Assembly: GCA_964202905.1 (NCBI GenBank)
Contig: CAXNJO010000001.1
Span: 384,001-448,000 of the forward strand
DNA: 64,000 nucleotides
Direction: 5' to 3'
Origin: Polyangiales bacterium
Lineage (GTDB): Bacteria; Myxococcota_A; Polyangia; Polyangiales; JADJQN01
Below the pieces are notes generated by a model, which saw only the letters and a list, made by a program, of their open reading frames with translations, was not told where the DNA came from and did no database searches. The position numbers and the translations under genes are program-made. This document shows positions 36,710-47,519 of this stretch, piece after piece. Numbering within the stretch: position 1 is the stretch's first letter; each line of letters starts with the position of its first letter.

Positions 36710-39087
36710 TCAGCGCTCTTCGCCGACGCGGGTGCGATCGAGGGTGTCGGGCAGCGCGAAGGGCCAGCCGCGCGCGGGGTCGCGCAGGTAGCGATAGCGC
36801 GCGAGGTGCGTCGTCACGCGGCGCACGTAGTTGCGCGTCTGGTCGACGGGGATGCGCTCGACGAAGCGGGCGAGGTCGTCGTCGGGGATCGCGCGCAGCC
36901 AGCGGCGCACGCGCGGCCCGCCCGCGTTGTAGGCGGCGATCGCGAGCGGCCACTGCTCGCCGAACGCGCGCAGCAGCGACGCGTGGTACGCGGCCGAGAG
37001 GCGGATGTTCGTCTCGGGCTCGAAGAGGCGCGCGCGGTCGAAGGGCGCGAGGCCGATGCGCTCGGCCACGCGGCGCCCGGTCGAGGGCAGCATCTGGAGC
37101 AGGCCGATCGCGTCCGCGTAGGAGACGGCGTCGGGGTCGTAGCCGCTCTCCTGGCGCATGATCGCGTAGAGGTAGTCGTCGGGGAGCGTGTGCGCGCGCG
37201 ACGCTGCCTCGACGGCCTCGGCCCACGGACGCGGATAGGCCGCCTCCCAGAGCCATGCGTCCCCCGCATCGGGTGCACGGGCGAGGACAGCGCGCTGCGC
37301 GACGAGCCGATGGGCACGCGCGGCGTCGCCGAGACGCAGATACAAGGCCGAGAGCGCCTCGAGCTCACGGCCTGCGGGCGCGGCGCGGCGGAGCGCGTCC
37401 TCGTCGCGGCGCACGAGCGCGAGCGCGTCGGCGTCGAGACCGAGCGCGGCGTAGAGCGCGGCGGCCGCGGGCAGCGCGAGCGGCGGAATAGCCGATGGGA
37501 TGTCAAAAGATGGTGATTCCTCGGAACGGGCGGCCCGGCATGTTCGCCGAGCGACTCGAGCCGCGCGCGCGCGAGCAGCGCATACCAGTGCAGCGCCTCG
37601 GCCGCGATCGCGTCGCGGTAGTGACCGATGGCCGCGGCGCGATCGTCGGCGCGCTCGGCGGCGCGGCCCGCCCAGTAGTGCCCGCGCCCGCGGACGAGGC
37701 CGCCCGTGCCACTCGCGGCATAGGCCGTGAACGCCGCGCGCGCCTCGGCGAAGCGACCCGCATCCAGCCGCGCGAAGGCCAGCTCCGCGCGGGCCGCGCG
37801 CGCATCGTCGGGCGCACGCGCGGCGCGCGGACCGCGCACGAAGCGCTCGAGACGCGCGACGCCATCGGACGCACCGGAGCGCAGCGCGAGGAGCCCCGCG
37901 AGGTACTCCGCCTCGGCGGACTCGGGCGCGTCGGGGTGCGCGCGCACGAGCCGCGAATACGCGCGGATCGCGCCTGCGTCGTCGTCCGAGCGCGCGAGGG
38001 CGCGCGCCGCGTGGAAGGCGTCGGCCACGGCCGTCGGGCCACCGAGCGCGGCGGCTTGCGCGAGCACGCGCGCCGCCTCGGGATAACGCTCTCGCGTGCC
38101 GTAGAGCGCCATGCCCCGCACATGCAGCAGCCGGGCACGCAGCGCGCGCACCGCCGCGCCCCTCCCCGCCGGCGCGCGGACGCCCTCGAGCTCCGCGAGC
38201 GCGCGCTCGTGCTGGTGCGCGCGGGAGAGCTGCTCGGCCCGGGCGATGCGCTCCGAGACGCCGAGCCGGGCCGATGCCCCGGTGCCCTCGAGCTCGGCGA
38301 GGCGCGCGCGCGCGACGGCGTCCTTCGGGTGGTCGGGCCGCACGAGCACGAGCGCCCGCAGCACCCGCGCCGCCTCCCGACGCTCCCCCGCCTCGGTGAG
38401 CAGCGCGGCGAGCTGCAGACGCTCGGGAAACGCGTAATCTCCCGCTGCCTGCGCGGCCTGCCGCTGCGCCGCGAGCGCCGCCGCGAGGCGCCCCCCGAGC
38501 CGCGCACACACCGCCCGCTGCGCGTGCACCACGGCGCTCGGCATCGGCAACGCCTCGAGCAGCGGCGCGGCCTCGGCGCAGCGCCCCGCGCGCGCGAGCA
38601 GCAGCGCGTGGCGACGCGCGGCGTCCCGCGCGACCGGATCCGGCAGCCCACGCACGGCGGCGAACGCGTCGGCCGCCTCCCCCGCGCGACCGCGCCGCTC
38701 GAGCAGACGACCGCGCAGATAGCGCGCCGCGGGCGCGTCACGCTGCGCCTCGGGCAGCGCGACAAGCGCGGTGAGCGCGTCCTCGTCCCTCCCCGCGCGG
38801 ACGAGCGCCGCGATCGACGCGGGCACCGGCGCACCGTCCGTCGAGGCGCCCGCCTCCCCGGCCGGCGACCCACCCTCGTCATGCCCGCTGCCGGACTCCT
38901 GGGCGCACGCGCGCCCCACCCCGCCGAGACCCGCACCGCCGAGACCCGCACCGCCGAGACCCGCACCGCCGAGACCCGCACCGCCGAGTGACGTGCCCCA
39001 GATCCCCGCGCCGCAGAGCGCGAGCCGGCACGAGAGCACGAGCGCACGCGAGCGCGAACGAAGCACGCGCGCAGCCTGCGGGCGCAC
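36710..39087 (-). pseudogene. Soluble lytic transglycosylase (Slt-like, TPR superhelix plus SLT domain) with a frameshift near 37500-37530
   Basis: The TPR region in ORF 36814..39087 ends ...LESLGEHAGPPV. The SLT domain is in ORF 36710..38509: AIMRQES, AIGLLQMLPST, AAYNAGG, QTRNYV. Confidence 0.8.
38921..38988. repeat. 15-bp tandem repeat (CCGCCGAGACCCGCA) x4.5, encoding GGAGL repeats in the Slt N-terminus
   Basis: Four exact copies at 38921-38980 plus a partial CCGCCGAG. Confidence 0.95.
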
Positions 39088-39155
39088 GTCGGGCCGCGCA
39101 ACGGCGCCCGCGCTGCGTGGCGCGGCCGAGGCGCGTCGCGTACCCTGCGCGCCGC

Positions 39156-39548
39156 ATGCCGGGTCGCCGCCTCGCCCTCTCCGTCGCGCTGCTCGCGGCC
39201 GTCGCCCTGCCCTTCGCGGCGGGCTGCTCGCCGAGCATCGGCGATTCGTGCGGCGTCTCGACCGACTGCGACATCAACGGCACGCGCATCTGCGACCTCG
39301 CGCAGCCGGGCGGCTACTGCACGATCCAGGGCTGCGACGTCGGGACCTGCCCGGACGGCGAGGCCTCCTGCATCCAATTCCGCGCCGACGAGCCGCGCCT
39401 CGCGGAGTCCTTCTGCATGGCGTCCTGCGAGTCGGACTCCGGCTGCCGCACGGACGAGGGCTACCGCTGCGTGCAGGCCGCGCAGGTCGCCGGCGTCGTG
39501 CTCGACGGGCCCACGCGCTTCTGCGCGATCCCGCCCGCCGCGCCCTGA
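39156..39548 (+). CDS. Small Cys-rich lipoprotein
   Basis: Signal peptide with AAGC lipobox, then IGDSC...DC...C...PGGYCT..GC...CP...C...FCMASC...C...YRC...FC. Confidence 0.8.
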   Translation: MPGRRLALSVALLAAVALPFAAGCSPSIGDSCGVSTDCDINGTRICDLAQPGGYCTIQGCDVGTCPDGEASCIQFRADEPRLAESFCMASCESDSGCRTDEGYRCVQAAQVAGVVLDGPTRFCAIPPAAP

Positions 39549-39562
39549 CGGGGCGCACGCCC

Positions 39563-39598
39563 GCGGCCACGGAGCAGCGCGCGGCCACGGAGCAGCGC
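39563..39598. repeat. 18-bp tandem duplication GCGGCCACGGAGCAGCGC x2 (intergenic)
   Basis: Exact copies at 39563-39580 and 39581-39598. Confidence 0.85.
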
Positions 39599-39697
39599 CG
39601 GCCCGCGCGCGGCTGCGGGCGTGCGCACCCGCGCATCTGCGCCAACCATCCGAAAACTGGCGCATTTCCGCCCCTCGGCGTACTCCGCGAAGACACC

Positions 39698-40639
39698 ATG
39701 TCCGCGGGATTGCTCCGCTACCTCGGCGCCCGCTCCCTCCGCGCCCTGCTCACCGTGCTCGGCGTGGTGACGCTGGTCTTCCTGATCGTGCGCGCGGTGC
39801 CGGGCGATCCGGTCGACGCGATCCTCGGCGATCAAGCCTCCCCGGGCGATCGCGCCTCGCTGCGGGCCGCGCTGCACCTCGACGCGCCGCTGCTCACGCA
39901 ATACGCGATCTTCCTCGGCGAGGTGGGGGACGGCACGCTCGGGCACTCGTTCCGCCGCCGCGACGAGACGGTCGCCTCGCTCATCGCGCAGGTGTTCCCG
40001 GCGACGCTCGCGCTCGCGCTCGCCGCGTTCGCCGTCGCGTGGCTGCTCGCGCTGCCGCTCGGCTCGCTCGCCGCGGCGCGGCGCGGTTCCCGCTGGGATC
40101 TCGGCGCGCGCGCCATCGCGCTCTTCGGCCTCGCCGTACCCGGCATCTGGCTCGGGCCGCTGCTGATCCTGCTCTTCGGGGTGGTGCTGCGCGCGCTGCC
40201 TTTGCCGGGCGACGAGGGCGCGGGCGCGCTCGGGCTGGTGCTGCCCGCGCTCACCGTCGGCGCAGCGTTGTCGGCCGTGCTCACGCGGCAGACGCGCGGC
40301 GCGATGATCGAGGTCCTCTCCGAGCAATACGTGCTCGCGGCACGCGCGCGCGGTGTCTCCCCGCTGCGCGTCGTCGTCGTGCACGCGCTCCGCAACGCGC
40401 TGCTGCCGGTGCTCACGGTGGGCGCGGCGCAGCTCGGCGCGGTGCTCTCGGGCACGGTGATCACCGAGAAGATCTTCGAACGCGAGGGCCTCGGCTCGCT
40501 CTTCCTCGACGCGTTCTTCGCGCGCGACATCCCGGTCGTGCAGGGCTGCGTGCTCGTGGTCGCGCTGCTCTACGTCGCGGTGAACCTCGCCGTCGACCTC
40601 ACCTACGGGCTCGTCGATCCACGCGTGAGGCTGTCGTGA
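39698..40639 (+). CDS. Peptide/nickel ABC transporter permease (OppB/DppB-like)
   Basis: VPGDPV, LGHSF, EAA loop YVLAARARG...HALRNAL and RDIPVVQG. Confidence 0.93.
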   Translation: MSAGLLRYLGARSLRALLTVLGVVTLVFLIVRAVPGDPVDAILGDQASPGDRASLRAALHLDAPLLTQYAIFLGEVGDGTLGHSFRRRDETVASLIAQVFPATLALALAAFAVAWLLALPLGSLAAARRGSRWDLGARAIALFGLAVPGIWLGPLLILLFGVVLRALPLPGDEGAGALGLVLPALTVGAALSAVLTRQTRGAMIEVLSEQYVLAARARGVSPLRVVVVHALRNALLPVLTVGAAQLGAVLSGTVITEKIFEREGLGSLFLDAFFARDIPVVQGCVLVVALLYVAVNLAVDLTYGLVDPRVRLS

Positions 40640-42051: not shown

Positions 42052-43233
42052 TCAGCCGGCGTGCGCAGCGAGGCGCACGCGACGCCGACGCCGCCAGCGC
42101 CAGAGGAGCGTGAGCGTGACGAGCGGCGTGACGGCCGCGGCCGCAAACGCCGCCGGATACAGGTACTCGCGGGCCTGCCCGAAGCGCACGCGCGGCGGGC
42201 GCGGACGCTCGACCACGACGACCGGACCGGACGGCGGCGTGGCCTCTCCCTGACGGGTCTCGGCGACCGTGGCGCGCGGCGGCGGCGCGACGATGCCGAT
42301 GTGGTTCATCACCTCGCGCTCGTTGCCGCGGACGAAGACCTCCTCGGCGCCGTCGCCGCGCTGCCGGACGCGCGCGCCCGTTTGCCGCGCACGCGCCTCG
42401 CGCGACTCGCGTGCGCCGAGCCCGAGCTTGGCCTCCCAGCGGCCCCCCGATGGCGAGTTCACGATGCCGCCCTCTTCGGCCACGAACATCGCGCTCGAGC
42501 CGCCGCCGTCGAGGTTGAGCGCGCGGTCCGCGCCGAACTCCACGAACATCCGCGCGAGCTCGTAGAGGGTCATGCCGTGGCTGTGACCCTGGCGTCCATC
42601 GACCACGATCAGGATGACCTTCTTGCCATCTCTGGAGATGCCCACGGAGGAGCGCGGGTGCCGCAGGTTCGCGCTGTCGAAGGCGTCGAGCGAGACGAGG
42701 TCGAGCCGCCCGTCGCGCACCAGCATCGGCTGCCCGCTCACGGCCTCGCTGACACGCTCGAGCGCGATGCGGTCCTCGTCGAGCTCCGGCGCGCTGATCC
42801 ACGCACGCCCGCCGCGCGTCACCGCGAAGAAGCCGATCTCCGTGTCGTCCTCGCCATCGGGCCAGCGCGCGCCCCCACCCGCCGTGACGCCTTCGGCGTG
42901 CTGGAGCATCCCCCAGAACCCGCCGTTGGTCGCGGCCGCGAGGCGGTTGCGCGTCGCGTACTCGCTCACCGTGCTCCAGCGCTCCTCGTAAGGCGTCGCG
43001 CGGATGCGGACGCCGGGGTGCGCGAGGTCGACGACGAGCGCGTGGATGGTGCTCGGCAGCGTCGTCGTGCGGACGAGGTGGCGGACGCCGGGGTTCGGGT
43101 CGAGCCAGCGGTCGGTGTGCGCGACCGGCGGGCGACGACGCTCCTGCGCGGCCGCGCGAGCGCCGGGCGCACCGCAGACGGCGGCGAGCGCAAGGACGAC
43201 GAAAAGCGCCTGTGAAATCGGCGTGTTGACCAC
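42052..43233 (-). CDS. Phosphodiester glycosidase (NAGPA / DUF2233) family protein, secreted with a C-terminal TM anchor
   Basis: AATNGGFW, HPRSSVGI, IVVDGRQGHSHGMTL, ALNLDGGGSS and NSPS. Signal peptide and a C-terminal TM followed by RWRRRRR. Start uncertain (GTG 43233). Confidence 0.88.
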   Translation of the reverse strand: MVNTPISQALFVVLALAAVCGAPGARAAAQERRRPPVAHTDRWLDPNPGVRHLVRTTTLPSTIHALVVDLAHPGVRIRATPYEERWSTVSEYATRNRLAAATNGGFWGMLQHAEGVTAGGGARWPDGEDDTEIGFFAVTRGGRAWISAPELDEDRIALERVSEAVSGQPMLVRDGRLDLVSLDAFDSANLRHPRSSVGISRDGKKVILIVVDGRQGHSHGMTLYELARMFVEFGADRALNLDGGGSSAMFVAEEGGIVNSPSGGRWEAKLGLGARESREARARQTGARVRQRGDGAEEVFVRGNEREVMNHIGIVAPPPRATVAETRQGEATPPSGPVVVVERPRPPRVRFGQAREYLYPAAFAAAAVTPLVTLTLLWRWRRRRRVRLAAHAG

Positions 43234-43439
43234 CGACGCACAGCCCGCGTGCGCTCCGCGGCGCGGGGCGCGGGTCACGCGGGACGGTGGCTCCTCCCGG
43301 CGGGCGCGGTGGGTACGGCGGCATGGACGCGGCGGATTATTCGCAAACGCGGCGTCCACGGCAAAGGAACCGCAGCCCGTGTCACTCTCTGGCCGCCGCC
43401 TGCGCGCCGGTGTACAGGCGAGCGCCTCGAGGCCCAAAC

Positions 43440-44798
43440 GTGCTTGCCGACGGAACCGCCCCACGCCCTGCACCGCGACGCGCGTCGCACCTCCGCGCCG
43501 CGCTCCTGCTCGCGCTCGGCGTCGGCGCCTGTGCCGGCAACTCGGGCGGCGGCGATCCCGGCCCCGCGCCCGCCGCGACACCGCGCGCACCGTCCCGCCC
43601 CGATCCCCGCGCCGCGGCCTCCCCCGCCGATCTCCCGGACGCGTCCCCCGCGGACGCCGCGTCTCAGGGCCCACACGACGGCGCGGCCGGCGGCGCGGAC
43701 GGGGGCGCGCTCGCAGACCCGCCCCCCGAGGGCCTGCGCGGCGGCGGCTGGTACTTCGAGGTCCCCGACGCCGACCTTCGCGAGCGCCTCGCGACGCAGC
43801 CGCTGCGCGAGGTCAAGCGCGGCTACGGCGGCCGCAGCGTCGCGTTCAAGATCACGCTCGAGGACGGCTCGCAGGGCTACTACAAGCCGGAGCAGCGCTT
43901 CTCGGCGGCGCACTGGTGGTCGGAGGTCGCCGCCTACCACCTCGACCGCGCGCTCGGCCTGCACCGCACGCCGCCCGTCGTCTCGCGCCGCCTGCCGTGG
44001 TCGGTGCTGCGCGCGGCGGCACCGGACGACGAACGCTTCGCGGAGGTGATCGTCGGCGACGACGGCACGGTGCGCGGCTGCTTCTCGTACTGGGTGCCCG
44101 ACCGCCTCGTGCCGATGCGCTTCGGGCGCGGCTGGGAGCGCTGGGTCCGCGTGCAGACGTGGCCGGAGACCGCCGTGTCCCCATTCCAGCGGCCGCGCGT
44201 CTACACGAACCGCCTCGCCGCGCAGCGCGCCGGCACGGACGCCGATGCAGGCGCGCCCCGTCCGGGCGCGGTGGGTCTCGCCCTGCCTTCGTCGCCGGAC
44301 GGCGAGAGCGAGCCCGGCTTCGCGACCACGACCGACCTCGCCGCCAACGAGCGCAACGACGAGGGGACGCAACTCCCGCTCGCGCCCGCGAGCCCCGACG
44401 AACCCGAGCGCGCCGCCGAGCTCTCCGACCTCGTCGTGTTCGATTACCTCACGCAGAACACCGATCGCTGGGGCGGCGGCAACGCGAACGTGCTCACGCG
44501 CGGCCACGGCGGCCGCATCGTCTTCCTCGACAACGCCGCGGGATTCCCCGACACGCCGAGCGTCTCGAGCGGCCTGATGGACGCGCGGCTCCGCGTGCTC
44601 CAGCGCTTCCGCCGACGCACGGTCGCCGCGCTCCGAGCGCTCGACGTCGCGCGGTTCGCGCAGCGCCTCGCGGGCGAACCGCTCGCGCCGATCCTCGGCG
44701 AACGCCAGATCGCGCAGCTCGAGACGCGGCGCCGCACGGTGCTCGAGCGCGTCGCCGAGCTCGAGGCGCGCTTCGGCAGCGCCGCGATCCTGCCCTGA
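43440..44798 (+). CDS. Lipoprotein with a Four-jointed/Fam20-like atypical kinase domain
   Basis: Lipobox VGAC. YYKP, EVAAYHLDRALG...PPVVSR, DLVVFDYLTQNTDR, IVFLDNAAGF, RFRRRT and PLAPIL. Start uncertain (ORF open from 43287). Confidence 0.75.
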   Translation: MLADGTAPRPAPRRASHLRAALLLALGVGACAGNSGGGDPGPAPAATPRAPSRPDPRAAASPADLPDASPADAASQGPHDGAAGGADGGALADPPPEGLRGGGWYFEVPDADLRERLATQPLREVKRGYGGRSVAFKITLEDGSQGYYKPEQRFSAAHWWSEVAAYHLDRALGLHRTPPVVSRRLPWSVLRAAAPDDERFAEVIVGDDGTVRGCFSYWVPDRLVPMRFGRGWERWVRVQTWPETAVSPFQRPRVYTNRLAAQRAGTDADAGAPRPGAVGLALPSSPDGESEPGFATTTDLAANERNDEGTQLPLAPASPDEPERAAELSDLVVFDYLTQNTDRWGGGNANVLTRGHGGRIVFLDNAAGFPDTPSVSSGLMDARLRVLQRFRRRTVAALRALDVARFAQRLAGEPLAPILGERQIAQLETRRRTVLERVAELEARFGSAAILP

Positions 44799-44846: not shown

Positions 44847-45089
44847 TCAGTGCGCGGGCGGCGTGGGCTGCTCGGCGCGGGGCGTCAGGTGCATGCCGCA
44901 CACCGGACAATCGCCCGGCCCGACGTGCGAGTAGGGCGTCGCCTCGCCGGGCTTGATGCACTGCATCGGGCACTCGTAGACGCGCGTGTCGGCTTGCGCG
45001 GGGGCGGCCTCGGCCCCGCTCGCGCCGCCGCACGCCGCAGCCACCGGGAGCAGGATCGCGAAGAGGAATCGCATCGGGAGGCGGGACAT
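44847..45089 (-). CDS. Small lipoprotein with a heavy-metal-binding (YxCPM...CPxCGM) domain
   Basis: Lipobox AAAC, then YECPMQC...GPGDCPVCGMHL. Confidence 0.85.
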   Translation of the reverse strand: MSRLPMRFLFAILLPVAAACGGASGAEAAPAQADTRVYECPMQCIKPGEATPYSHVGPGDCPVCGMHLTPRAEQPTPPAH

Positions 45090-45623: not shown

Positions 45624-47519
45624 TCAGCGCCCCTGCGCGCGCCCGGCGTCCTCGACGCGCACCTGCACGGGCGCCGACATCGGATCGTCCGGCTCCGGCC
45701 GCGCCCCGCTCTGGCGCAGCACCCCGAGCCGCAGCCCGCGGGCGACGACGAGCGCGCGCAACCCCGGTTCGAGCGGGTGCACGCTTTGCGCACGGTCCCC
45801 GCGCCGCAGGTGCGCGGGGGAGAGCACGCCGTCCATCCACAGATCCACGCGGCGCGGACGCCAGCCGACACCGAGTCGCAGCACGAGGTCGCTCGGGCAG
45901 CCGCCGCGCGCCGCGAGATCGAGCGTCAGCACGTCGCCCCGCAGCGTCGCGGCCTCGACCGCGAGGCAATCGCAGAGCGCGACGCCGCCCTCCGGATCCG
46001 TGCGTCCGCGCAGGTAGCGCCCCGCCGCGCCGCCCCGCGGATCGGCCCCGCGCGCGAGCAGCAGCAGGGAGGACGTCGCGTGGACGACGCCGTACTTCTC
46101 CTTCGCAACCCAGTCCCGCACGAGCGGCTCCTCGTCGGTCCGGATGAGCGACTCCCGGTGACGGAAACGCGCGCGGTGCCGCACATCCAGCACGACGTAC
46201 TCGGCGGCGCGGTCGGGCGGCGGCCCGCGCAGCACGCTCCTGCGCTCCGCGAGGTGCGGGAGCAGCGCGTCGGGCGCCTGCACGCTGCGCGTCGCGGGGA
46301 TGCGCGCGACCACGCTCTCGGCATCGCGCGTGAAGGCATCCGCGCGGAAGGCCGACATGGGGAAATCGCGCGAGAGCGGCGTGCCCCCCGCGAGCACGTG
46401 GCCCAGCAGGGCCGGCACGCCGAGCAGAGCCGGCGCGAGGCGCGACGTCACTGCGCGCGACGCGCCCGGACGCGCTCGGAGACGCGCGACGAGGTGGGCC
46501 ATCCCCTCAATCGCCGCGGCGAGCACGAATGGCAGCGCGGGCGTGAGGTAGTGCGACGCGAGGTCGAGCGTCGTCGGGAAATGCGAGACGAGGTTCACGG
46601 CCAGCGCGGGGAGCGCGGGGATCAGCCAGCGCGGGCGCAGCAGCGGCCAGACCAGCCCGACGGGCGCGAGGACGGTGACGCCGTAGAGCAGCCGGCGCGG
46701 CGCGACGAGGTGCTCTGCGAGGTCGCCAGGGTGCGAGAGCAGGTGCCGCGCGACCTCCGGGAAGCTGTTCCCCCAGCGACCGAAGTGCAGCTGCAGGGAG
46801 CCCACCGGCGGTGCGTACCGCGGGTGCAGGACGAGCAGAAAGTAGAGCAGATACGCGGCGCTGCCGAGCACACCGGCGAGCGCGAGGCCGACCGCACGAC
46901 GCCGCTCGCCCGGCGGCACCGCGCCGCGCGCGAACGCCACCGCGCCGACGGCGCAGGCCGCGGCCGTCATCGTCGCGAGGTCTTCGCGGCACGCGAGCGT
47001 CGCCACCACGCAGGCGAGCGCCGTGCGCGGCGCGCCACGATCGAGCGCGTCGACGAGCCAGGCGAGGGGCAGGACGGCGAGCGTGCCGGGATGGAACTCG
47101 TAGGGCACCACGTGCCCGAGGTTCGGCTGCAGCAGCCAGGCGAGCCCCGCCGCGAGGTACGCCGGCGGTCCGAGCCGCCGCCCTGCGAGCCGCGCGAGCG
47201 GGAACGCCGTCGCCGCGTACGCAGCCGCCTGCGCGGCGAGCAACACCGGCACCGTCCCGAACGCACGCCCGAGCACGCCGAGCGGCAGGAGCACCACCGA
47301 GAGGTGCAGCCCTGCGACGTGCGCGCCCACGATCGACTCGCGCGGGTCGTACCGCACGAGCCCCCACGCGATGCGCGTGTAGAACGCGAGGTCGAAGGTG
47401 CGATTGTGATACGTCGCGTAGCGCTGCCAGGACAGCGCGAGCAACCCCACGCCCGCGGCCGCAGCGAGCGCCAGCAGGGCGCCGCGTGCGCGCCGCGCGA
47501 GCTGGGCGTCCGCATCCAT
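45624..47519 (-). CDS. DUF2079-like multi-pass membrane protein (putative GT-C glycosyltransferase)
   Basis: FDLAFY after the first TM, GLHLS, YEFHP, ACREDL, HYLTP and LLPHLAER. Many TM helices. Confidence 0.75.
   Translation of the reverse strand: MDADAQLARRARGALLALAAAAGVGLLALSWQRYATYHNRTFDLAFYTRIAWGLVRYDPRESIVGAHVAGLHLSVVLLPLGVLGRAFGTVPVLLAAQAAAYAATAFPLARLAGRRLGPPAYLAAGLAWLLQPNLGHVVPYEFHPGTLAVLPLAWLVDALDRGAPRTALACVVATLACREDLATMTAAACAVGAVAFARGAVPPGERRRAVGLALAGVLGSAAYLLYFLLVLHPRYAPPVGSLQLHFGRWGNSFPEVARHLLSHPGDLAEHLVAPRRLLYGVTVLAPVGLVWPLLRPRWLIPALPALAVNLVSHFPTTLDLASHYLTPALPFVLAAAIEGMAHLVARLRARPGASRAVTSRLAPALLGVPALLGHVLAGGTPLSRDFPMSAFRADAFTRDAESVVARIPATRSVQAPDALLPHLAERRSVLRGPPPDRAAEYVVLDVRHRARFRHRESLIRTDEEPLVRDWVAKEKYGVVHATSSLLLLARGADPRGGAAGRYLRGRTDPEGGVALCDCLAVEAATLRGDVLTLDLAARGGCPSDLVLRLGVGWRPRRVDLWMDGVLSPAHLRRGDRAQSVHPLEPGLRALVVARGLRLGVLRQSGARPEPDDPMSAPVQVRVEDAGRAQGR

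Follow-up and report, generated by a model that had tools for sequence, protein, structure and literature searches.

Our analysis identifies a bacterial protein that is genuinely related, in sequence and in fold, to the Fam20 kinases of the animal secretory pathway. The protein is encoded in a stretch of 64,000 nucleotides (nt) from Polyangiales bacterium (assembly GCA_964202905.1, contig CAXNJO010000001.1, positions 384,001 to 448,000; here called the window, whose numbering is used throughout unless a contig is named). The corresponding gene starts with a GTG at position 43440 of the plus strand and yields 452 amino acids (aa). An earlier note, made from the nucleotide sequence, had described the product as a lipoprotein resembling the Golgi kinases Four-jointed and Fam20. 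Judged from its sequence, the protein is rather likely to be an exported, lipid-anchored kinase that uses ATP to phosphorylate an extracytoplasmic substrate, since a lipoprotein signal peptide on a Fam20 relative predicts just this combination.

Sequence and fold similarity to Fam20

Pfam, phmmer, a family profile, Foldseek and VIA-align all rank Fam20 first, and the resemblance that the earlier note had drawn from motifs is thereby substantiated. In the Pfam scan the Fam20C model (PF06702) matched residues 320-440 with 28.9 bits (cut-off 26.8), and the FAM198 model (PF15051) matched residues 159-185, the alpha-C block, with 25.0 bits (cut-off 25). A phmmer search against all PDB chains (E<=10) returned six sequences, every one of them a Fam20A, Fam20B or Fam20C: hydra Fam20B (1.1e-8) and human Fam20C (4e-8) were followed by two Fam20A sequences (1.4e-6 and 1.6e-6) and, more weakly, by zebrafish Fam20C (5.5e-5) and C. 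elegans Fam20 (3e-3). With a profile of 32 family members the PDB match to human Fam20C reached 6.5e-23 and that to hydra Fam20B 1.3e-16, the next entry lying at 0.037.

The fold was compared by means of an AlphaFold2 model computed on the 32-member alignment (mean predicted local distance difference test score, pLDDT, 75.7; predicted template modelling score, pTM, 0.72). The pLDDT exceeds 80 across most of the domain and falls below 50 solely at residues 1-11, 29-93 and 275-305. Foldseek against the PDB placed Fam20 chains on all of ranks 1-28 (7.6e-16 to 3.8e-10), the next families being PI4KII-alpha (1.9e-5) and CtkA (4.1e-4). VIA-align, which is independent of Foldseek and was run against 48,161 representative chains, gave hydra Fam20 a Z of 24.6 (root-mean-square deviation 3.0 over 271 residues), zebrafish Fam20C 24.5, C. 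elegans Fam20 23.8 and chain 5yh3_D of the human Fam20C/Fam20A complex 19.6; the other scores were 15.8 for PI4KII-alpha, 14.6 for CtkA, 13.0 for actin-fragmin kinase, 11.5 for CotH and 10.0-10.7 for HipA. Best matches to an unrelated fold, or to HipA- or PI4K-like kinases, would by the earlier note have spoken against the Fam20 assignment; Fam20 lies well above both PI4KII-alpha and HipA. Membership in the HipA, PI3/4-kinase or CotH families was considered and is rejected, as Fam20 outscores them in sequence, profile and fold comparisons. HipA_2 (PF20613) reached 19.3 bits in the Pfam scan, under its cut-off of 27, and no Pfam match of the protein to the CotH family appeared at E<=10. The NCBIfam scan gave nothing usable (TIGR03843, sub-threshold at 18.9 bits against 172.4).

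The gene itself is well defined. Its open reading frame (ORF) spans 43287..44798 on the plus strand, GAGG sits 7 nt upstream of the GTG at 43440, and a public gene call (P0002; 452 aa, 100% identical) begins at the same GTG. An in-frame ATG at 43323 is an alternative start; it would make the n-region longer without removing the lipobox. At 43364-43336 there is a promoter-like site for the divergent gene on the minus strand, and this fits a stretch upstream of the GTG that is plausibly intergenic. All motifs quoted in the earlier note were located in the 452-aa translation and in the order given there, i.e. LLLALGVGAC (ending in Cys31), GYGGRS, YYKP, SEVAAYHLDRALGLHRTPPVVSR, DLVVFDYLTQNTDR, RGHGGRIVFLDNAAGF, QRFRRRT and EPLAPIL, so its account of a signal peptide with a VGAC lipobox, a linker and an ordered motif series holds. 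In the family alignment the Pro/Ala/Gly linker varies in length and sequence among homologues, and the insert at residues 275-305 belongs to the closest relatives only, being a gap in most sequences of the 32-member alignment.

DNA closely similar to the kinase gene occurs in lake-water and freshwater metagenome assemblies from several studies. In a freshwater-sediment metatranscriptome library, one 200-nt contig covers 44582-44781, in the 3' part of the gene, with two differences; the other five metatranscriptome pieces matching the gene are 18-34 nt long. This match is a weak hint of transcription at most, DNA carry-over being possible.

Active-site residues and export signal

The Lys, Glu, catalytic Asp and metal-binding Asp equivalents, which the earlier note had thought intact, are each retained in at least 120 of 121 close homologues. 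Lys149 of YYKP aligns with the FKP Lys of Fam20C (phmmer and profile alignments), Glu162 of SEVAAYHLDR with the Glu of AEIAAFHLDR, Asp342 of NTDRW with the Asp of NADRH or NMDRH, and Asp364 of FLDNAAGF with the Asp of HLDNAKSF or HLDNGRGF. Conservation was scored in 268 proteins (the 121 close homologues and 147 cluster representatives) aligned to the 32-member family profile. Among the close homologues Lys149 and Glu162 are kept in 120 each and Asp342 and Asp364 in all 121; Asn340, Asn350 and Asn365 are likewise kept, as are Trp344 (121), Ala367 (120) and Ala157 (112). The cluster representatives hold Lys at the first of these positions in 125 cases, Arg in 7, Glu in 1 and a gap in 14; Glu162, Asp342 and Asp364 are present in 126, 131 and 133 of them, the gaps being mostly fragments.

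Comparison with the structurally characterized animal enzymes sharpens this picture. In the available excerpts of a study on Fam20 evolution, Asp299 is the catalytic base of hydra Fam20B, and His301 and Lys321 contact the xylose (PMC5865150). The D-R-H string in the phmmer alignment fixes the offset, so that Asp342 corresponds to Asp299, Trp344 to His301 and Ala367 to Lys321. For the alpha-C helix, the earlier claim of an intact Glu stands for the canonical Glu162. It does not extend to the additional acidic partner of the Lys that is peculiar to Fam20, for which the bacterial family has Ala157 or an alignment gap. According to the same excerpts this extra residue (Glu213 in C. elegans, Asp152 in hydra) precedes the canonical alpha-C Glu by five positions, and its replacement by Gln is part of the reason why Fam20A is a pseudokinase (PMC5865150). 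The Lys-Glu pair is canonical and the apparatus for catalysis and metal binding intact; as far as its sequence can tell, the protein is probably an active, stripped-down Fam20-type kinase.

The N-terminus, PRRASHLRAALLLALGVGAC, combines a charged n-region, a hydrophobic core and a lipobox ending in Cys31; the Gly at position -2 is less usual in lipoboxes. The N-termini of the 121 close homologues were scored with an in-house heuristic (a hydrophobic stretch; a lipobox Cys after hydrophobic residues). At least 15 residues precede the domain in 115 of them, and of these 64 show a lipobox, 38 another hydrophobic N-terminus and 13 neither; among the remainder, four N-termini are too short to judge and two lack the anchor motif that marks the domain start. 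Several of the 38 hold Cys-containing ends outside the lipobox pattern, and most of the 13 begin right after the Cys position (e.g. VEPARSAD...) and so look like truncated gene calls. The lipoprotein signal reported at the start of the protein is thus upheld by this heuristic, which finds an N-terminal export signal in 102 of the 115 homologues. No consistent twin-arginine motif was seen among the homologue N-termini, which makes Sec the likely export route.

The sorting destination can be approached by analogy. In Myxococcus xanthus, as the available part of one report has it, lipoproteins of the inner membrane are recognizable by Lys at +2 and those of the matrix by Ala at +7 (PMC3222651). 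The predicted mature end here is C-A-G-N-S-G-G; with Ala and not Lys at +2, the outer membrane is probably the likelier destination, as far as the rule can be transferred from so distant a relative. A subfamily (P0026, P0030, P0031, P0036 and others) carries a conserved C-[VI]-E-P-A-R-S-A-D-[VA]-P directly after the lipobox Cys, and this motif might be a sorting or processing signal.

Location outside the cytoplasm is also suggested for two distant relatives, P0268 and P0242, both metagenome cluster representatives in which a Fam20-like domain forms the C-terminus of a fusion with the major facilitator superfamily (MFS) and Arg replaces the beta3 Lys. A hydropathy scan of P0268 found 10 segments, three more being inferred in long loops; we infer a topology of 12 MFS helices, then a loop with nine Lys/Arg and a 13th helix, which leads into the kinase-like domain. 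Under the positive-inside rule, the Lys/Arg-rich loop and the extra helix would place the kinase-like domain of both proteins outside.

In the mechanism we propose, the protein would be exported by Sec and then lipidated at Cys31, and the kinase domain would hang on a flexible linker of about 65 residues, in the periplasm or on the surface. Lys149 and Glu162 would hold the ATP phosphates, Asp364 of the LDN motif would bind the metal, and Asp342 of DRW would serve as the base acting on the substrate hydroxyl. Candidate sources of ATP would be periplasmic ATP arriving by an unknown route, an unlinked transporter of the TLC family, or lysed neighbouring cells. As a rough grading of substrates, an envelope or secreted glycan seems to us the foremost candidate, if somewhat short of an even chance; a protein is a serious contender, and a lipid or small molecule a fairly doubtful one. 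The slight lean towards a glycan is due to the ancestral precedent of Fam20B, to the NAGPA and DUF2079 genes that lie beside or near a minority of orthologues, and to the invariant Trp near the catalytic Asp.

Gene neighbourhood and family distribution

Coordinates of the gene, the parts of its product and the neighbouring genes are given in Table 1. Orthologous loci were compared in two overlapping sets of 15 and 80 loci, some of which have short flanks. A NAGPA gene adjoins the orthologue in 7 of 15 and 7 of 80 loci, DUF2079 lies within a few kb in 6 of 15 and 7 of 80, and OppC is found directly upstream in 10 of 80. The small convergent ORF, which shows a heavy-metal-binding motif of the CP..C....CP.CGM type, has a counterpart beside the orthologue in one of the 80 loci. 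In the window ThiE follows the DUF2079 gene, and Opp-type permeases lie further upstream. At the lower-GC, majority-type loci L054 and L088 the kinase gene is followed by same-strand ORFs of identical lengths, which in L054 encode agmatine deiminase (AguA), N-carbamoylputrescine amidase (AguB) and ThiE.

Table 1. Position and basis of the kinase gene, the segments of its product and the adjacent genes in the window.
Feature	Position	Strand	Basis
Fam20-like lipoprotein coding sequence, 452 aa plus stop	43440..44798	+	ORF, translation, identical public gene call, GAGG
Signal peptide ending in lipobox V-G-A-C; Cys31 codon 43530-43532	43440..43532	+	sequence, model helix 15-26, homologue N-termini
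Pro/Ala/Gly linker, residues 32-94, predicted disordered	43533..43721	+	pLDDT <50 at residues 29-93
N-lobe: GYGGRS Gly-rich loop (128-133), Lys149 (43884-43886), alpha-C Glu162 (43923-43925), HLDR	43722..44261	+	invariant alignment columns, alignments to Fam20C/B, pLDDT 80-98
Low-complexity insert, residues 275-305, predicted disordered	44262..44354	+	pLDDT <50
C-lobe: FDYLTQNTDRW, FLDNAAGF, QRFRRRT, EPLAPIL, terminal helix	44397..44795	+	Pfam Fam20C match, Fam20 alignments
Catalytic Asp342	44463-44465	+	aligns with Fam20B Asp299 in DRH; kept 121/121
Metal Asp364	44529-44531	+	aligns with LDN Asp; kept 121/121
Divergent neighbour: exported NAGPA-type phosphodiester glycosidase (start approximate)	42052..43233	-	PF09992, 120 bits
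Convergent neighbour: 80-aa lipoprotein-like ORF (..PVAAAC)	44847..45089	-	PF19335, 21 bits, below 23.6 cut-off
DUF2079 membrane protein (start approximate)	45624..47477	-	PF09852, 135 bits

Gene context, tried as a guide to the substrate and as a possible functional operon, was discarded: the neighbours are shared by a minority of loci, and AguA, AguB and ThiE are cytoplasmic housekeeping enzymes. The neighbourhood is a conserved chromosomal backbone and not a functional module. Pairing with NAGPA, a sugar-phosphodiester hydrolase, is suggestive of a glycan substrate and is not general across the loci; the animal namesake of this enzyme also resides in the Golgi. Upstream of the Opp permease genes, around 38000-39500, the GC content is 0.78-0.80. 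The plus-strand frame 38771-39700 in this GC-rich stretch reads as a run of PRPAPP repeats and is a candidate coding sequence only.

Precomputed PF06702 annotations are attached to 110 of the 120 homologues listed. Close orthologues were found, among the listed homologues and 80 GTDB loci, solely in Myxococcota of the Polyangiales/Sandaracinaceae type. All 80 GTDB loci and the named homologues come from metagenome-assembled genomes (MAGs), labelled Polyangiales, Sandaracinaceae, Polyangiaceae, Polyangia, Myxococcales, Myxococcota or 'delta proteobacterium'; a few bear the generic labels 'uncultured bacterium', 'uncultured proteobacterium' or 'Pseudomonadota bacterium'. One orthologue, at locus L079, belongs to a Sandaracinus-type MAG. 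Of 401 genomes sampled from the phylum, 111 match the 32-member profile and 31, this genome included, hold a strong orthologue (E<1e-100). The remaining genome matches, at 1e-10 to 1e-33, represent more distant paralogue families, and some genomes of the phylum carry up to 8 family matches.

On a wider scale, HMMER against 1.84 billion cluster representatives (50% identity) returned 1,640 clusters at E<=1e-3, 771 at <=1e-10 and 181 at <=1e-30. Ten of 15 cluster representatives scanned with Pfam pass the Fam20C threshold, some wider relatives reaching 55-75 bits; the distant members P0207 (75 bits) and P0177 (69 bits) outscore the protein of the window on this model. That several distant members score far higher places the latter on a fairly divergent branch within a broader Fam20-like radiation. 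In the ESM Atlas the nearest clusters are without exception bacterial, Myxococcota being the phylum most often represented, and the first of them bears the automatic name 'Golgi casein kinase, C-terminal, Fam20 domain-containing protein'.

This genome has a single PF06702 match. A second, divergent paralogue, at about 787-789 kb of contig C1 (L029 1889-3820, plus strand), has a lipoprotein-like N-terminus (..ALAAC) and gives no Pfam match at E<=0.001. With Arg for the beta3 Lys (FRP) and RDHN for LDN, its sequence may be that of a pseudokinase. Frames of 918-1,292 aa at four loci in other genomes (L115-L118; genomes G006, G381, G271 and G266) show a Fam20-like catalytic-loop motif at their C-terminal end; no informative Pfam family was found in their long N-terminal parts, which gave one sub-threshold zinc ribbon.

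Alternative explanations and relation to known systems

Several points weigh against an exported and active kinase. We know of no classical ATP supply to the periplasm. The Fam20C and FAM198 Pfam scores barely exceed their thresholds, and the signal-peptide calls stem from the in-house heuristic, not from SignalP. The Fam20-specific acidic residue has no bacterial counterpart (HMMER treats it as a Fam20C insertion, and position 157 is Ala in 112 of 121), and the Fam20B sugar contacts His301 and Lys321 are replaced by Trp344 (121/121) and Ala367 (120/121). Four disulfides are described as common to Fam20B and Fam20C in the excerpts already cited (PMC5865150); Cys31 and Cys214 are the sole cysteines of the protein, and all four disulfides are therefore absent. 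The gene context offers no partner, most orthologues being located in the Opp / AguA-AguB / ThiE backbone.

The supply of ATP deserves particular attention. For E. coli, the accessible text of one review states that the periplasm holds and hydrolyses ATP, that vesicles contain ATP, and that the route across the inner membrane is unknown, no ATP/ADP translocase being known there (PMC7432876). In the genome studied here a TLC-family membrane protein (ATP/ADP-transporter type; 43.8 bits, cut-off 21) is encoded at about 134.8-136.7 kb of contig C1 (L110 1114-2964, minus strand), and it also counts against the proposed mechanism that this gene lies 292 kb from the kinase gene. A TLC match is present in 30 of the 31 genomes with a strong orthologue, versus 159 of 401 overall; in six genomes belonging to one genus the TLC and kinase genes are 7-14 kb apart, and in two further genomes the distance is about 5 kb (G059) and 11 kb (G360). 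Since the strong-orthologue genomes are close kin within one clade, this co-occurrence is a lead and not support. A further counterpoint comes from family f20, where 30 of 34 genomes have a Fam20-like match and only 5 of the 34 have TLC, i.e. the wider family does not track TLC. The TLC transporter as ATP supplier was set aside on these grounds, namely the single clade, the distance in this genome and the wider family.

What, then, could the protein be if not an exported kinase acting at the cell envelope? Its missing acidic partner of the Lys, whose loss contributes to Fam20A inactivity in the available text (PMC5865150), would suit an exported pseudokinase or a non-kinase role, in which the protein binds a nucleotide or another ligand, or serves as scaffold or activator like Fam20A, without phosphotransfer. 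The lack of an established ATP supply to the periplasm and the existence of degenerate members, such as the paralogue with Arg for Lys and RDHN for LDN in the same genome, point the same way. Retention of the Lys, the alpha-C Glu and both Asp in at least 120 of 121 homologues, together with Asn340, Asn350 and Asn365, is hard to explain without catalysis, however, and canonical kinases need the alpha-C Glu alone, which is present here; we hold this alternative to be rather unlikely. The ATP problem would be solved if the protein were shipped as cargo into other cells, for instance in outer-membrane vesicles during predation or contact, and phosphorylated targets inside an ATP-rich prey. In this analysis the family was found in Myxococcota-type genomes alone, with up to 8 matches in some genomes of the phylum, and a lipid anchor would suit vesicle loading. 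This explanation nevertheless appears quite improbable: by the Pfam model the orthologue is single-copy here, and it keeps a stable position, flanked by housekeeping genes, in several families of the order, with 40-50% identity, which looks more like a core function than a fast-evolving effector. Moreover, the Pfam scan of the neighbours found no secretion-system or immunity gene beside the kinase gene, and the carriers are small-genome MAGs whose DNA occurs in lake-water and freshwater metagenomes.

The weakest case is that for a cytoplasmic protein, whose signal peptide would be an artefact of the start codon and whose action would be that of a HipA-like or other cytoplasmic atypical kinase. 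Such a case can invoke the extension of the ORF up to 43287 with its in-frame ATG at 43323, the relative P0007, which is annotated with a longer N-terminus resembling the upstream stretch, and the sub-threshold HipA_2 match (19.3 bits vs 27). It is very improbable all the same, as the hydrophobic stretch and the Cys are kept under either start, the GTG at 43440 has a GAGG 7 nt ahead of it, an N-terminal signal at the annotated start is seen in 102 of 115 homologues, and Fam20 outscores HipA by sequence and by fold (Z 24.6 vs 10.7). An exported, lipid-anchored kinase thus remains the explanation we favour.

Our literature search found no paper describing bacterial Fam20 kinases. The study of Fam20 evolution covered annotated animal genomes alone, and its text contains neither 'bacteria' nor 'prokaryot' (PMC5865150). 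A 2022 kinome survey, in its available part, has the FAM20 cluster as eukaryote- or Metazoa-specific (PMC9758233). A preprint of May 2026, as far as its accessible text goes, names FAM20B as one of at most five elements that Myxococcota may have contributed to eukaryotic endomembrane functions and calls the Myxococcota signal 'not always unequivocal' (10.64898/2026.05.08.723234). It is conceivable, if doubtful, that an old and large Myxococcota radiation of exported Fam20-type kinases, working in the periplasm or at the surface, gave rise by gene transfer to animal Fam20, Four-jointed and FAM198. If so, extracellular phosphorylation would be a bacterial invention with an ATP supply of its own. 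To our knowledge, the known periplasmic phosphate transfers use lipid donors. A clear bacterial Fam20 branch bears on the origin of animal secretory-pathway kinases and on whether ATP is used by Gram-negative bacteria, outside their cytoplasm, to phosphorylate components of the envelope or secreted products. Should the protein be active, the question of how ATP reaches the periplasm, as raised in the accessible text on E. coli, gains urgency (PMC7432876). Some members already carry the label 'Fam20 domain' from automatic pipelines, and the novelty would lie in the biology and not in the detection.

Among known systems, the kinases of the PI4KII-alpha, CtkA and HipA types are the next structural neighbours (Z 15.8, 14.6 and 10.7) and clearly below Fam20. 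The spore-coat kinase CotH (5jda), named in the earlier note as the nearest bacterial precedent, is a bacterial atypical kinase that does share the fold, but it is far more distant (Z 11.5) than Fam20 (24.6). CotH works on the spore coat within the mother cell and has ATP at its disposal there. It is said, in the available portion of one paper, to share sequence similarity with Fam20C (PMC12189002). FAM198 is linked to the protein by the alpha-C block, which its model matches exactly at the threshold (25.0 bits). The motif likeness to Four-jointed/FJX1 given in the earlier note is plausible.

Closer still is the Fam20B glycosaminoglycan xylosylkinase (hydra Fam20, 5xom/5xoo), the best single-sequence PDB match (1.1e-8) and the top fold match (Z 24.6). 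It differs in Asp152 and the four disulfides, which have no bacterial equivalent, and in the Gal-Xyl contacts His301/Lys321, which are Trp344/Ala367 here. Fam20B as a glycan kinase is described as the likely ancestral form, with Fam20 orthologues running from sponge to mammals, in the available text of a 2021 review (PMC7948968). Fam20C (human 5yh3_C, zebrafish 5yh0, C. elegans 4kqa) is the best profile match and a joint top fold match at about 17-22% identity. Its bacterial relative has a lipobox and a predicted lipid anchor where Fam20C has a type II or cleaved signal; it lacks the disulfides, the 11-residue insert between Lys and alpha-C and the extra acidic residue of Fam20C, and has DRW for DRH and Ala for the Arg of LDNGRGF. 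Both proteins nonetheless share, in the same order, the FKP Lys, AEIAAFHLDR, FDFL..N.DR, LDN.xGF, R.R..T and a C-terminal APVL helix, as well as an N-terminal signal into an extracytoplasmic compartment, which for the bacterial protein is predicted.

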